From the NCBI GenBank assembly GCA_963663385.2, contig CAXXXD010000004.1, forward strand, positions 544,001 through 608,000: a stretch of DNA of 64,000 bases, read 5' to 3'. The notes beneath the pieces were generated by a model. The model was given only the letters and a program-made list of their open reading frames with translations. It did not search any database and had not been told where the DNA came from. Of this stretch, positions 57,634-63,807 are shown piece by piece. This stretch comes from Oceanispirochaeta sp. GTDB taxonomy: Bacteria > Spirochaetota > Spirochaetia > DSM-2461. The position numbers and the translations under genes are program-made. Every line of letters starts with the position of its first letter. Position 1 is the stretch's first letter.

Positions 57634-59274
57634 TCACATTGATAAGTCCCCTTTCTTCCCGAGATAGTACTCATAATCCCCTTCAAAGGTCTTCATGGCC
57701 CCATGATCAATTTCGAAGACCCGGTTGGCCAGGTGCTTCAGAAAGTACCGGTCATGGCTGACGATGATGACGGTTCCTTCAAACTCCTGCAGGGCTTCCA
57801 GCAGAACTTCCCGGCTGGCGATATCCAGGTGGTTGGTCGGTTCGTCCAGCATCAGGAAGTTGAGGGGCCGGGCCAGGAGGGACGCCAGCATCACCCGGCT
57901 CTTCTCTCCCCCCGAGAGAACGCTTATTTTTTTGTCCGTATCGTCTCCGGAAAACTGGAAGGCCCCCAGCAGGTTCTTGATGGTTCCCATGGATTCACCC
58001 GGCAGGATGGCCGCCAGCTCTTCGTAGATGGTATTCTGCGGATTCAGGGTATCCCCGGAATACTGGCTGAAATACCCGGCGCTCACACTGGCCCCCAGAG
58101 TGCTTTCCCCCTCAGTCGGTTCTGTCTGTTCATTCAGAACCTTCAGCAGGGTGGATTTCCCCGCACCGTTGATTCCTGTCAGGGCTATCTTGTCGCCCCG
58201 TTCCACCACGCCGGTGATCCCGCTGAATACAGGGTGATCCGTTCCATCCTCCTGAGGCCAGGTTTTGGCCAGGTTTTCCATCCTGACGACCACATCGCCG
58301 CTGCGGGGGCAGGGGGGGAATTTAAACTTCATTACTTTGGGGTCCGGCGGAACGACGATCCGTTCCATCTTCTCTATCATCTTGACCCGGGACTGTACCT
58401 GGGCGGCATGGGAGGCCCGGGCGGCAAAGCGGGCAATGAATTCCTCCTCCTTGGCCAGCATGGCCTGCTGCCTTTTCTGAGCGGCGATCAGCTGTTCCCG
58501 GCGGATCTCCCGTTCCCGGAGATAAAAATCATAATCGCCGCTGTAGGTGTTAACAGTCTCTCCGGCGGCCTCTATGGTGCGGCTGCAGATCCGGGTCATA
58601 AACTCCCTGTCATGACTGGTCATCATCAGGGCGCCCTTGAAGGATTTCAGCCACTCTTCCAGCCAGATAATGGATTCCATATCCAGGTGGTTGGTAGGTT
58701 CGTCCATTAAAAGGACATCCGGGTTCAGCAGCAGGATACCCGCCAGGGCAATCCTCATTTTCCAGCCGCCGCTGAAGCTTTCCACGCTGTTTGACTGGCG
58801 GGCTTCGGGGATTCCCAGACCTTCCAGTATGGCTCTGGCGCTGGATTCCAGCTCGTACCCGCCCCGGTTCTGGAATTCGGTCTGGGCTTCGCCGTAACGG
58901 TTCATCATTCTGTCCATGGCTTCGTCGCTCATCCCGGCCATGGCATCCATGTCGGCCATTTTATGTTCTATCTCAGACAGCTCTTCGCCCAGTTCAAAGA
59001 CCTTCCCCGCGCAGGAGAGAACTTCTTCAAGGACTGTGCGGCCGGACATTTCTCCCGTATCCTGGGAGAAGTAGCCTATTACAACCCCCGGATCGATATT
59101 GACTGTTCCCTCGTCGGGGTGTTCTTCTCCTGTAATCAGACGGAACAGGGTTGTCTTGCCCGATCCGTTCGGTCCTACCAGGCCGATCTTGTCCTGGGGC
59201 CTGATCAGAAAGGAGGATTTGCTGAAGAGTATGCGGTCGCCGTAGGCAACGCGGATATCGGACAGATTGACCAT
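57634..59274 (-). CDS. ABC-F family ATP-binding protein
   Basis: Two NBDs (GPNGSGKT, FSGGW, DEPTNHLD; GINGAGKS, LSGGE, DEPTNHLD), no TM. Confidence 0.93.
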   Translation of the reverse strand: MVNLSDIRVAYGDRILFSKSSFLIRPQDKIGLVGPNGSGKTTLFRLITGEEHPDEGTVNIDPGVVIGYFSQDTGEMSGRTVLEEVLSCAGKVFELGEELSEIEHKMADMDAMAGMSDEAMDRMMNRYGEAQTEFQNRGGYELESSARAILEGLGIPEARQSNSVESFSGGWKMRIALAGILLLNPDVLLMDEPTNHLDMESIIWLEEWLKSFKGALMMTSHDREFMTRICSRTIEAAGETVNTYSGDYDFYLREREIRREQLIAAQKRQQAMLAKEEEFIARFAARASHAAQVQSRVKMIEKMERIVVPPDPKVMKFKFPPCPRSGDVVVRMENLAKTWPQEDGTDHPVFSGITGVVERGDKIALTGINGAGKSTLLKVLNEQTEPTEGESTLGASVSAGYFSQYSGDTLNPQNTIYEELAAILPGESMGTIKNLLGAFQFSGDDTDKKISVLSGGEKSRVMLASLLARPLNFLMLDEPTNHLDIASREVLLEALQEFEGTVIIVSHDRYFLKHLANRVFEIDHGAMKTFEGDYEYYLGKKGDLSM

Positions 59275-59399
59275 GGTTTGAAGACTCCTGAATAATGAGA
59301 TGGTTCTGCGGAAGCGGAACCGGGAGGATTTTACTTTAATCTTTATGGTGTGTCAATTTAGGGTTATACCTGTAACAGGTCTCTTTTCCCTGCTGTACA

Positions 59400-59512
59400 G
59401 GGGACGGAGGGATATGGGGGACGGAGGGATATGGGGGACGGAGGGATATGGGGGACGGAGGGATATGGGGGACGGAGGGATATGGGGGACGGAGGGATAT
59501 GGGGGACGGAGG
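59400..59512 (+). repeat. 17-bp tandem repeat (GGGGGACGGAGGGATAT), about 6.6 units
   Basis: Units start at 59400 (16 nt), 59416, 59433, 59450, 59467, 59484; partial unit 59501-59512. Confidence 0.97.
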
Positions 59513-59765
59513 TCGCGAAATTCCGATTTAACCCCTTTCGAACCCGCAAAACTACTAAAAACCGTTATACAAACAGTTTTTTCAGCTGCAGAAAATCATC
59601 CAGGCAGTAAAGAAGGTCATTTATTCAGCATTAATACCCGGAAAAGACTGTTTTTTAAGTGAAATATATGAGTTTTTATCTGATTTCAGAACAGTTCTTA
59701 CCTGTAAAACGATTCTATGTAGAGTTTTCATTAGTTATTAAATAGCAGATTAAAGCTTTTTTGAT

Positions 59766-60257
59766 TTATAATATCAGTTTCAACCACTCATCTGGCGGGT
59801 CCATTACCCTCAGGAACTTTCGTCTCAGCTCATATAGACCGCTATAGATGTAATTCCCGGCATTTTTACACATCCCGGCCTTCACCGGATTATCTGAAAT
59901 ATAGTGAAATGTATTCACAAACTGATCAAAACTGCGAATAATGATGCTTTTAAAACGGTCATACCAGACATGCCCTGTCTTGCCATATATTGAGTTGAAC
60001 CTTCTGGCAAAGCCGCTTAAAATTAGCTGCATGATTCTTGAGAGGTCTGAATCAGGACCAGGCTCCAGGATTAGATGCACATGATTACTCATTATACAAA
60101 AATGAATTAACTTGAAATCATACTTCTTTTTCGCCAGCATCAGTTCTGCAATAAACAGATCTTTCATGGCATCAGAATACAGCATGAATTCCCCTCGATT
60201 TGTTTTGGCCATTACATGGTACCGGGCGCCCGGTATTTTAATTCTTGGTTTACGCAT
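59766..60257 (-). CDS. REP-associated tyrosine transposase (RAYT; Y1_Tnp/IS200-like HUH)
   Basis: MRKPR...GARYHV, MSNHVHL (HUH), GHVWYDRF, catalytic Tyr in YISDNPVKAG. Confidence 0.9.
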   Translation of the reverse strand: MRKPRIKIPGARYHVMAKTNRGEFMLYSDAMKDLFIAELMLAKKKYDFKLIHFCIMSNHVHLILEPGPDSDLSRIMQLILSGFARRFNSIYGKTGHVWYDRFKSIIIRSFDQFVNTFHYISDNPVKAGMCKNAGNYIYSGLYELRRKFLRVMDPPDEWLKLIL

Positions 60258-60300
60258 GTAATTCTCTACAGGGAGAACTTACTTTCTGATTCAAATATCT

Positions 60301-60402
60301 TAATTTTTTTGATAACCTCCGTCCCCTTCTCCCTAATTTTTTTGATAACCTCCGTCCCCTACTCCATGTTCCGTCCCCTTCTCCATGTCCCCTTCTCCAT
60401 GT
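60301..60402 (-). repeat. Nested direct repeats carrying CCTCCGTCCCC (inverse of the left array motif)
   Basis: 27-mer TAATTTTTTTGATAACCTCCGTCCCCT at 60301 and 60334, then shorter TCCGTCCCC (60370) and GTCCCC (60387) copies; the three outer copies are followed by CTCCATGT. Confidence 0.9.
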
Positions 60403-60445
60403 ATTCGGGCCGATATTCCATTTCGAGTCAGTATTGATTATAAAT

Positions 60446-60475
60446 AAAAAAAGTCCGACTTTCGTCGAACTTTTT
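60446..60475 (-). terminator. Rho-independent terminator after tRNA-Cys
   Basis: Minus strand AAAAAGTTCGAC-GAAA-GTCGGACTTTTTTT. Confidence 0.8.
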
Positions 60476-60482
60476 AAGCATT

Positions 60483-60555
60483 AGGCGCCGAGCGGACTCG
60501 AACCGCTGAATGATGGATTTGCAATCCACTCCCTTAGCCGCTTGGGTACGGCGCC
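60483..60555 (-). tRNA. tRNA-Cys (GCA)
   Basis: Reverse complement GGCGCCGTACCCAAGCGGCTAAGGGAGTGGATTGCAAATCCATCATTCAGCGGTTCGAGTCCGCTCGGCGCCT: acceptor stem, GCA anticodon loop, GGTTCGAGTCC T-arm; CCA not encoded. Confidence 0.96.
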
Positions 60556-60677
60556 AATGTGTGAAGAAATATACCAAATGCGGTAATCTTTGTCTAGACC
60601 GGTTCAAAAACATTTTTTTGATGCGGATCAAAGGCATCCCGTTGTCGGATATCCGGGGATATTTTATATTAGGGATT

Positions 60678-62568: not shown

Positions 62569-63807
62569 TCAGATATAATGAGCAGGTATTTGAAGTATCT
62601 TTTCATTCAAAGGCTGGATTTCATCAGCATTATTTATAACTAAACCAAGGGGTAAATTGTTTTCTTCCAGAAATCTGTTTAAAGAAGTCAGTTGCTTGAG
62701 TTTGGTAGTGCTGCCGAATTTTATTTCTATTGGTAGGGTTCCGAATCCTCCCTCCAATATCAGATCTATTTCTGCTCCGTTTCTTGTTCTGTAGTAATAG
62801 TATTCCCATCTTCCCAAATCCAGAGTATTCATCCCCTTTAAAATTTCTTCAGTGATAAATGCTTCAAAACTGAATCCTACCTGTCTGTAACGGAGTAGAT
62901 CCTCCCTGTCTTTTACACCGGCCAGGTAGTGTGCTAAACCACTGTCTCTGAATACTCCCTTGGGCATTTTCACAATAGATTTAGATCTGGATTTTTCATA
63001 GGATGGTATTTTCCTCCAGATAAAAGTAGAATCGGCTATATCAAGATAATCCTTGACCGACGGCTCCGAAATATCCAAAGCCCTGCTGAGAGATGCTTTA
63101 TTAATTATGGTTCCGGAAAGCTGGGAAAGTATATCAATAAATCGCCTGTATTTAAGAGAATCCAGTCTGGGGAACAATTTTCTTATATCTCTTTCTATGT
63201 ATGACTGGAAATAGTTCTCCATCCAGAGCCGATGGAAGACTGGATCATCAGCTAATACTGGTTCGGGGTAACCGCCTGAAAAAAAAGATTTTAGAGTATC
63301 TGATTTATAATTATAAACATGTTTTTTTAAGGAAAGGAATCTGTCTTTTGATATTTCATCATGAAAGAGAGAATAGAATTCCGGTAAAGGTTTTTCTTCT
63401 CTTTCATTTACTTTAAGTGTTGATACCTGGACTATTGCAATACGACCTGCCAGGGAATCTGCTGCTTCTCTCAGAAGGGAGGGGGAACTGGATCCTGTTA
63501 AAATAAAACGATTCTTTCTTGACCGGTCTTTATCGATTACTCCTCTGAGTTCCTTAAAGAGTTGAGGTAATTCCTGAGCTTCATCTAAAATGACGGAATC
63601 ATAAAATTGTGAGAAAAAAAACTGGAAATCTCTGGAAATAAAATCGAAATCCCTATTGTTCTGCAGATCAAAGTATTTCCAGTCAGGACGGCACATTTGG
63701 GCTAAGGTTGTTTTCCCTGTCTGCCTGGCGCCAATAATTAATACAACTGGGAAATAACCCAGGTTTTTATTGATCATCTCTTCAGAATTTCGTTTTATAC
63801 CATGCAT
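62569..63807 (-). CDS. AAA+ ATPase with a C-terminal DUF4143-like (PD-(D/E)XK-like) domain
   Basis: GARQTGKTT, ILDEAQ, LTGSS, SLAGR, GGYPE, YYRT..GAEIDL...PIEIK; visibly AT-rich. Confidence 0.87.
   Translation of the reverse strand: MHGIKRNSEEMINKNLGYFPVVLIIGARQTGKTTLAQMCRPDWKYFDLQNNRDFDFISRDFQFFFSQFYDSVILDEAQELPQLFKELRGVIDKDRSRKNRFILTGSSSPSLLREAADSLAGRIAIVQVSTLKVNEREEKPLPEFYSLFHDEISKDRFLSLKKHVYNYKSDTLKSFFSGGYPEPVLADDPVFHRLWMENYFQSYIERDIRKLFPRLDSLKYRRFIDILSQLSGTIINKASLSRALDISEPSVKDYLDIADSTFIWRKIPSYEKSRSKSIVKMPKGVFRDSGLAHYLAGVKDREDLLRYRQVGFSFEAFITEEILKGMNTLDLGRWEYYYYRTRNGAEIDLILEGGFGTLPIEIKFGSTTKLKQLTSLNRFLEENNLPLGLVINNADEIQPLNEKILQIPAHYI

Follow-up and report, generated by a model that had tools for sequence, protein, structure and literature searches.

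A 64,000-nucleotide stretch of an Oceanispirochaeta genome, here called the window, contains a small nuclease gene lying between two inverted arrays of a short motif. The locus raises the questions of what kind of element this is and how the repeats at its ends arose. A reading made from the letters alone (the sequence-only reading) had proposed an undescribed system; the kind had already been described as the TIRtron, with its transposase TIRYT, in PMC3733652. The window element is almost certainly a TIRtron of 0.8 kb, in which inverted RGGGACGGAGGW motifs enclose a single Y1 HUH nuclease gene (Table 1). As such it belongs to a kind that is already known, and little studied.

Table 1. Features of the window element and its immediate flanks, in window coordinates
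Feature	Position	Strand	Description
Host ABC-F ATPase gene	57634..59274	-	Flank, outside the element
Outer tip of downstream end	59393..59400	+	8 nt between the last base common to a close relative and the outermost GGGAC core; one observation
Downstream end	59400..59513	+	Seven motif copies with a perfect 17-nt period; the innermost copy is the terminal inverted repeat
AT-rich inner spacer	59514..59765	.	221-321 nt, unrelated sequence in 15 close homologues
TIRYT / RAYT-like Y1 HUH nuclease gene	59766..60257	-	Intact ORF, 163 aa, without a C-terminal HTH
Inferred leaderless promoter	60258..60294	-	Putative; TTGAA[GT]CA ~37 nt before the ATG in most of 29 close homologues
Upstream end	60315..60402	-	Terminal inverted repeat and three outer partial copies (33, 19 and 14 nt)
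Host tRNA-Cys gene	60483..60555	-	Flank, outside the element

The earlier description of an intact 163-aa Y1/HUH gene within an AT-rich segment of about 0.8 kb is borne out. The open reading frame is complete, and the inner 0.8 kb has 37% GC vs 48% for the window. The protein contains NHVH and YISDNP and scores 89.7 bits with the NCBIfam model REP_Tyr_transpos (cut-off 80); with the IS200 model it scores 25.3, below the cut-off of 55. Folded together with 57 homologues, it has a predicted HUH fold (pLDDT 93) whose best structural match is E. coli TnpA-REP, 4ER8 (TM 0.74); the single-sequence fold was poor (pLDDT 46) and was left out of use. All 57 homologues have the Y1_Tnp domain and invariant H59-H61 and Y119, and a domain search found an HTH family in none of them. 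Homologues have a median length of 171 aa, with 5 of 171 exceeding 200 aa, and HVWYD, in which the W motif is WYD, is present in 116 of 168. No Rfam family matched the inner spacer, and a search of 15 spacers for a hidden ORF or RNA gave one weak DNA match and no translated match.

TIRtrons consist of a tyrosine transposase gene between terminal inverted repeats of the GGGGWSAS type, and TIR families are moderately repeated, in dimers or clusters (Di Nocera, De Gregorio, Rocco 2013, PMC3733652). They have been equated with TnpA-Y1 subclass 2.1 (Quentin et al. 2018, PMC6006769), which is the Group 1 RAYT of Bertels et al. (2017, PMC5581495). This is the largest RAYT group, with 493 members in ~15% of strains (PMC6006769), and its genes are treated as domesticated, with modestly repeated flanks (Bertels 2017, PMC5581495; 2022 preprint). 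The window element resembles the TIRtron in its RAYT-like tyrosine transposase with HUH and catalytic Y, and in the inverted repeats that flank the gene at roughly fixed distances and carry a GGGG-led motif, not REP hairpins. Its motif, GGGGACGG, matches GGGGWSAS at seven of eight positions; the full fit, with the GGGACAG form upstream, is seen in 32 of 141 homologues on the same protein tree. With subclass 2.1 it shares NHVH (NHVH or NH[YF]H there), the class 2 Y---NP and the absence of a REP hairpin, and the roughly two divergent copies per genome reported for that subclass, with 49% mean identity, can be likened to the divergent copies found here. Subclass 2.1 proteins have a median of 238 aa, an HTH tail and a W[EQ] or FQ motif (PMC6006769). 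The window clade differs in its median of 171 aa, its lack of an HTH and its WYD. The window element is thus a short spirochaete form of the TIRtron without the usual HTH tail. The terms Spirochaeta, Sphaerochaeta and Treponema are absent from the two supplements searched for the subclass 2.1 and Group 1 RAYT papers.

Two better-known relatives were considered and set aside. E. coli TnpA-REP, the enzyme of the REPtron (PDB 4ER8), has the closest solved fold, and its gene-linked repeat also occurs elsewhere in the genome. It uses HUH chemistry with a 5'-phosphotyrosine and strand transfer to a 3'-OH, and REPs are GTAG hairpins cut between C and T (PMC8266576). In contrast, a REPtron of group 2/3 RAYT type was rejected here, there being no GTAG palindromic REPs, no hairpin and 32 exact 11-mers genome-wide; nor is there a conserved base at the inferred cut. 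The TnpA of IS200/IS605 shares the Y1_Tnp core and single-strand chemistry. That family was rejected on a score below the IS200 cut-off, Y---NP instead of Y---Q, inverted ends, and the lack of subterminal hairpins and of near-identical copies.

The motif belongs to the protein, as had been supposed. There are five divergent full copies in this genome including the window element, the other four genes being 61-67% identical, as well as one fragment; no near-identical copies of the gene were found in it. In all five, the inverted motif precedes the start by ~60-75 nt and follows the stop at a distance of ~235-280 nt. Among 175 distinct homologous loci from the class, titled Spirochaetota and closest in Oceanispirochaeta or Spirochaetaceae, the core GGGAC[AG]G lies upstream in the right orientation at 146 of 167 loci vs 25 in the wrong one, and downstream in inverted orientation at 81 of 166 (wrong orientation, 56). 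Both ends were seen at 18 of 23 loci of at least 55% identity, and at 68 of 158 overall. The same motif variant occupies both ends in 41 of 45 elements, and the variants track the protein tree, built with FastTree (10 and 14 changes vs 29 and 31 when shuffled; 0 of 500 shuffles).

Arrays are an optional feature of the element. They had been taken to define the system, which fails already in this genome, where 5 of the 10 ends of the five copies have a single motif. Among 225 homologous ends, 72 have at least two cores within 130 nt, 13 have at least four, and 153 have no second core within that distance. The predicted co-variation with the homologues is seen for the motif variants; the state of the array tracks the tree weakly (29 changes vs 34 shuffled). 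A search of 10 same-genus genomes found the gene in 4, mostly at different sites, and the element has therefore moved. L020 and L022, elements of two different species, both precede one host gene; either some insertions are old or sites have been used more than once. Viral contigs yielded 20 distant loci, 22-37% identical, and nothing close. In an AT-rich lineage (L235-L241) the motif is paired with an inverted copy across a 3-nt loop, forming a REP-like hairpin at both ends; six copies there are 80-85% alike over gene and spacer. Decayed forms are also found. L243 (G007:C2:2036.5-2036.8 kb) has an upstream end, tip included, that resembles the right end of the window element (82% over 49 nt), and a TIRYT fragment at G000:C2:561087-561973 has a 13-nt tip duplication at its surviving end. 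A solo motif at C3:550037-550098 of G000 has, on the inner side, a 16-nt triple repeat.

In the window, the innermost inverted 12-mers lie at 59502-59513 and 60315-60326, and the motif is reiterated in tandem outside each, as first described, with seven copies on the left and two exact and two truncated ones on the right. Exact GGGGACGGAGG occurs seven times on the plus strand (59400-59512, 17-nt period) and twice on the minus strand (60316 and 60349), and the two truncated cores of the right array lie farther out, beyond these exact copies. Shuffled controls gave 2.1 matches to GGGGACGGAGG at one mismatch or fewer, and at least 10 matches in 0 of 100 shuffles. Of the spacers thought to distinguish the arrays, the left period of 17 nt is real; the right array has no fixed spacer and instead consists of units of 14, 19 and 33 nt that, with the element end as a fourth, are nested and have a nearly common start. 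Its partial copies begin 9-11 nt outside GGGAC and stop at differing points. The motif is indeed non-palindromic here: no significant hairpin was found at the element ends, the four stretches folded all giving z between -1.5 and +1.5 against shuffles. Both arrays have G-quadruplex propensity (G4Hunter 2.1 and 1.6). Outside the arrays the exact 11-mer occurs nowhere else in the window, including the 59 kb to the left of the element. Contigs from a sequencing run, which may itself be the source of the assembly, are identical to the window over 57820-59419 and 59483-60556 and break inside the left array, so that its copy number of seven is without independent confirmation. Since the flank of the outermost core differs in the left array, this array is best explained by slippage between two motif copies that were already present.

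The edges of the element can be placed by comparison with relatives. A relative's contig, ~92% alike, matches the window to 59392 and continues with 1,238 other letters, which may be a diverged TIRtron; similarity to a same-genus genome resumes at 60404. Similarity to relatives thus ends at -9 on the left and at about -12 on the right of the cores. At the paralogue L005, for which two relatives have the empty site, the 8 and 10 nt just outside its cores are foreign to the target; at L027 ~9-13 nt of tip are absent from it, and at L007 the 38 nt separating host from core, made up entirely of copies of one 8-nt tip, are absent as well. The tips are not target DNA. No excess of target-site duplication was found in 20 elements; L005 has a 4-nt AAGG on both sides, indistinguishable from chance. 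L003 and L004 gave no two-sided empty-site match, and L021 was uninformative. For the window element itself, comparison of the interval between the ABC-F and tRNA-Cys genes revealed no empty site in same-genus genomes: in those matching both, the ABC-F gene is far from tRNA-Cys/ligA or lies on another contig, and a metagenome scan with a 22-nt flank pattern gave 0 matches. Relative to these genomes, the interval 59274-60483, in which the element sits, is a break in gene order. Next to it, 60404-60482 is a worn copy of a repeat whose family sits behind tRNA 3' ends in same-genus genomes; it holds an inverted piece of the tRNA T-arm and is tandem in L054. An ATPase gene with AAA_14 and DUF4143 (62569-63807, minus strand) faces ligA.

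Tandem duplications are concentrated at the motif. Exact duplications touch it at 19 of 158 ends vs 16 of 3000 random anchors; away from it they were seen at 0 of 158 positions 60 nt outside and at 8 of 159 positions 40 nt inside. Some have a common start. Among 23 ends with recent core-containing duplicates, whose inner extent varies from 1 to 40 nt, 12 have 7-11 nt of outer flank in common (5.5 expected, P ~0.002) and one shares at least 12 nt (9.6 expected), the expectations being those of a uniform start after removal of pairs with N or inside perfect arrays, and the 7-11 nt window having been picked after the data were seen. Of three new gene ends among 128 new loci, one agreed with a prediction of the fixed start set beforehand. 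Held-out doublets away from genes fell in the 7-11 nt window in 10 of 30 cases (7.2 expected, P 0.15), and held-out units of at least 25 nt in 4 of 19 (3.1 expected); long shared flanks were again scarce (7 vs 12.7 expected, P 0.011). Adjacent cores have less than 5 nt of flank in common in 72 of 90 pairs, a second class of duplication, to which the outermost pair of the left array in the window belongs, starts at -1 to -3, and no conserved base was found at the supposed nick. Since the start window was chosen post hoc and the held-out test agreed only in part, the fixed start is a tendency at gene ends and not an established law. The growth of the ends by nicking and rejoining, proposed in the sequence-only reading, gains from the clustering at the motif and the fitting geometry. 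The longest duplication, at L008, is a tandem repeat of 1,072 nt, 97.9% identical, which begins 9 nt outside the core and spans the whole element into the far flank, with a junction without homology.

Rolling-circle HUH elements (IS91/ISCR, Helitrons) start from a fixed origin, end at variable points and can read through into the flank; their proteins are larger, of the Y2 or Rep-helicase type, and their ends are unlike. A fixed origin with read-through would give a duplication of the L008 type, and a nick at a fixed point, with strand displacement and rejoining, would give its order. The chance is somewhat better than even that the arrays are seeded by the TIRYT enzyme through nicking, copying and rejoining. 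By analogy with rolling-circle HUH enzymes and with TnpA-REP, the enzyme would bind the G-rich strand of the motif, nick single-stranded DNA ~8-10 nt outside it and form a 5'-phosphotyrosine linkage at the nick. Host polymerase would then copy a variable length inward with strand displacement, and rejoining would leave incomplete copies of the tip of the element lined up head to tail. For the left array, with its perfect 17-nt period, the most likely origin is one such doublet, multiplied later by ordinary slippage between direct motif copies.

The alternative that survives best keeps the TIRtron and dispenses with the nick: replication slippage alone would have made the arrays, helped by G runs, by G-quadruplexes or by a stall of the fork where the protein binds. 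The left array, a perfect repeat bounded by direct motif copies, is what slippage would produce, and the G4Hunter scores of both arrays speak for it; many short duplications end in a G run, which by itself gives starts of -6 to -11, and the held-out test of the fixed start was not significant. However, the nested units of the right array have one start and different ends, and the L008 duplication begins at -9 and has no homology at its junction. Only 2 of 74 solo motif sites in this genome have a duplication, and slippage cannot write the motif over unrelated host sequence. We regard slippage alone as an unlikely explanation.

The last of these points concerns the dispersal of the motif. Five same-genus genomes with the gene have 55, 31, 65, 78 and 24 copies of the 10-mer, and six without it have 13, 18, 5, 3, 12 and 8, all below the control count; counts exceed control or Markov expectation in 5 of 5 with the gene and 0 of 6 without. 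Motif doublets were seen in 41 of 79 gene-bearing genomes vs 9 of 322 that lack the gene, a comparison, like that of the 10-mer, among related genomes that are not independent samples. In this genome, where the Markov expectation of the 10-mer is 13-15, the exact 11-mer is found 32 times. The outer flanks of 116 loci contain 183 motifs in 281 kb vs 1-4 for five control words.

The copies form a halo around the gene. In the relative G008, density per 100 kb falls with distance from its two genes from 50 (1-5 kb) to 32 (5-15 kb), 20 (15-30 kb), 5.6 (30-60 kb), 1.1 (60-200 kb) and 0.7 (>200 kb). Around these two TIRYT genes (G008:C2:1.13-1.34 Mb, L457-L462) are 44 of 78 motif copies in 4% of the chromosome, many of them inside conserved genes. 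Six 20-kb stretches (120 kb) contain 41 copies vs 0.7 for shuffled words, always preceded by a purine and mostly followed by A or T, with one-mismatch neighbours not raised (0-3). Motif copies lie mostly inside long ORFs, with all six frames used. Elsewhere, 14 copies lie in 20 kb around one TIRYT gene (G007:C1:1349-1362 kb, L463), including a five-copy run 2 kb from the gene. The halo in this genome is weak, at 3.0 per 100 kb within 1-15 kb vs 0.4 far away.

At most of the alignable solo sites the motif stands where relatives have host sequence. Among 37 solo sites in G008, 13 are colinear with orthologues, 6 have an indel nearby and 18 lack an alignable orthologue; thus 13 of 19 alignable sites show replacement without change of length, and none of 64 orthologous sequences carries the motif. 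Orthologues were found for three of four solo sites tested in this genome; all 14 comparisons were colinear and none showed the motif, and no spanning orthologue was found for the fourth. Chance alone should account for some 3 of about 15 solo 11-mers in this genome, and these would be indistinguishable from the rest. The motif is thus enriched with the gene, forms a halo and replaces host sequence, and the system disperses its repeat, rather than merely growing it in telomere-like fashion. The claim that it stands apart from REPIN-type dispersal finds no support, given the solo copies and doublets and the hairpin form of one lineage.

The same cis-acting enzyme likely pastes 12-nt motif patches into nearby host DNA, with selection keeping those that leave genes readable. 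A one-step writing of the halo by this enzyme, along with a cut set by distance, is possible, though we hold it only tentatively. Combined with the events at the tips, this gives a reading that must be thought somewhat doubtful as a whole: a 163-aa HUH enzyme that would read a 12-nt non-palindromic motif, cut at a set distance regardless of sequence, and act in cis, re-copying its own tips by abortive rolling-circle synthesis and overwriting 12-nt patches of host genes with no insertion scar.

A halo might instead be selected, not written, if the protein were a domesticated DNA-binding factor and nearby genes gained sites for it by point mutation. Orthologues match 6.0 of the 10 motif letters on average, many of the changes look synonymous, and the gene copies, being 61-67% identical, include none that is recent, all in keeping with such a history. 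Against it, the intermediates with one mismatch are not enriched, and some sites differ at most letters (L653, and L461+15363, where 2.7 of 10 are matched). The halo also follows the current, lineage-specific address of the gene, and 0 motif copies lie in the orthologous region of this genome (contig C1); moreover, only 4 of 10 same-genus genomes were found to have the gene, mostly at different sites. Selection is a quite improbable source of the halo.

The proposal of the sequence-only reading, a dedicated HUH repeat-expansion system with telomere-like arrays, separate from REP/REPIN-type dispersal, is very improbable and as a separate kind largely refuted, for although the motif is non-palindromic here and a few ends (13 of 225) have four or more cores, most ends (153) have no second one, array state follows the tree weakly, the motif disperses and takes a hairpin form in L235-L241, and TIR dimers and clusters were described in 2013 (PMC3733652).

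Two features look new. One is the tendency of re-copied units to begin 7-11 nt outside the motif while ending anywhere, with the element edges placed by empty sites falling there too; the other is that the motif is enriched only in gene-bearing genomes, in a halo around the gene, with length-neutral replacement of host sequence. No published description of the tip rule or the halo was found in a search that covered few subscription papers and in which just two relevant papers mentioned TIRYT or TIRtron, and the available parts of the TIRtron paper (PMC3733652) are silent on a fixed duplication start, on tips and on length-neutral motif replacement near the gene. For TIRYT and group 1 RAYTs, no substrate or activity is given in the accessible portions of PMC6006769, PMC5581495 and PMC3733652. 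This clade lends itself to a direct test of TIRYT activity: its protein is small, its putative substrate is 12 nt long with a cut predicted 8-10 nt from it, and there are two footprints in the genome. If the halo is written by the enzyme, a mobile element recodes host genes within ~50 kb of itself without indels, which bears on the origin of short bacterial repeats. Re-copying of tips in cis and overwriting of patches would, if true, be an undescribed, element-driven and local mutagenic process, and a plausible route to the birth of REP-like repeats.
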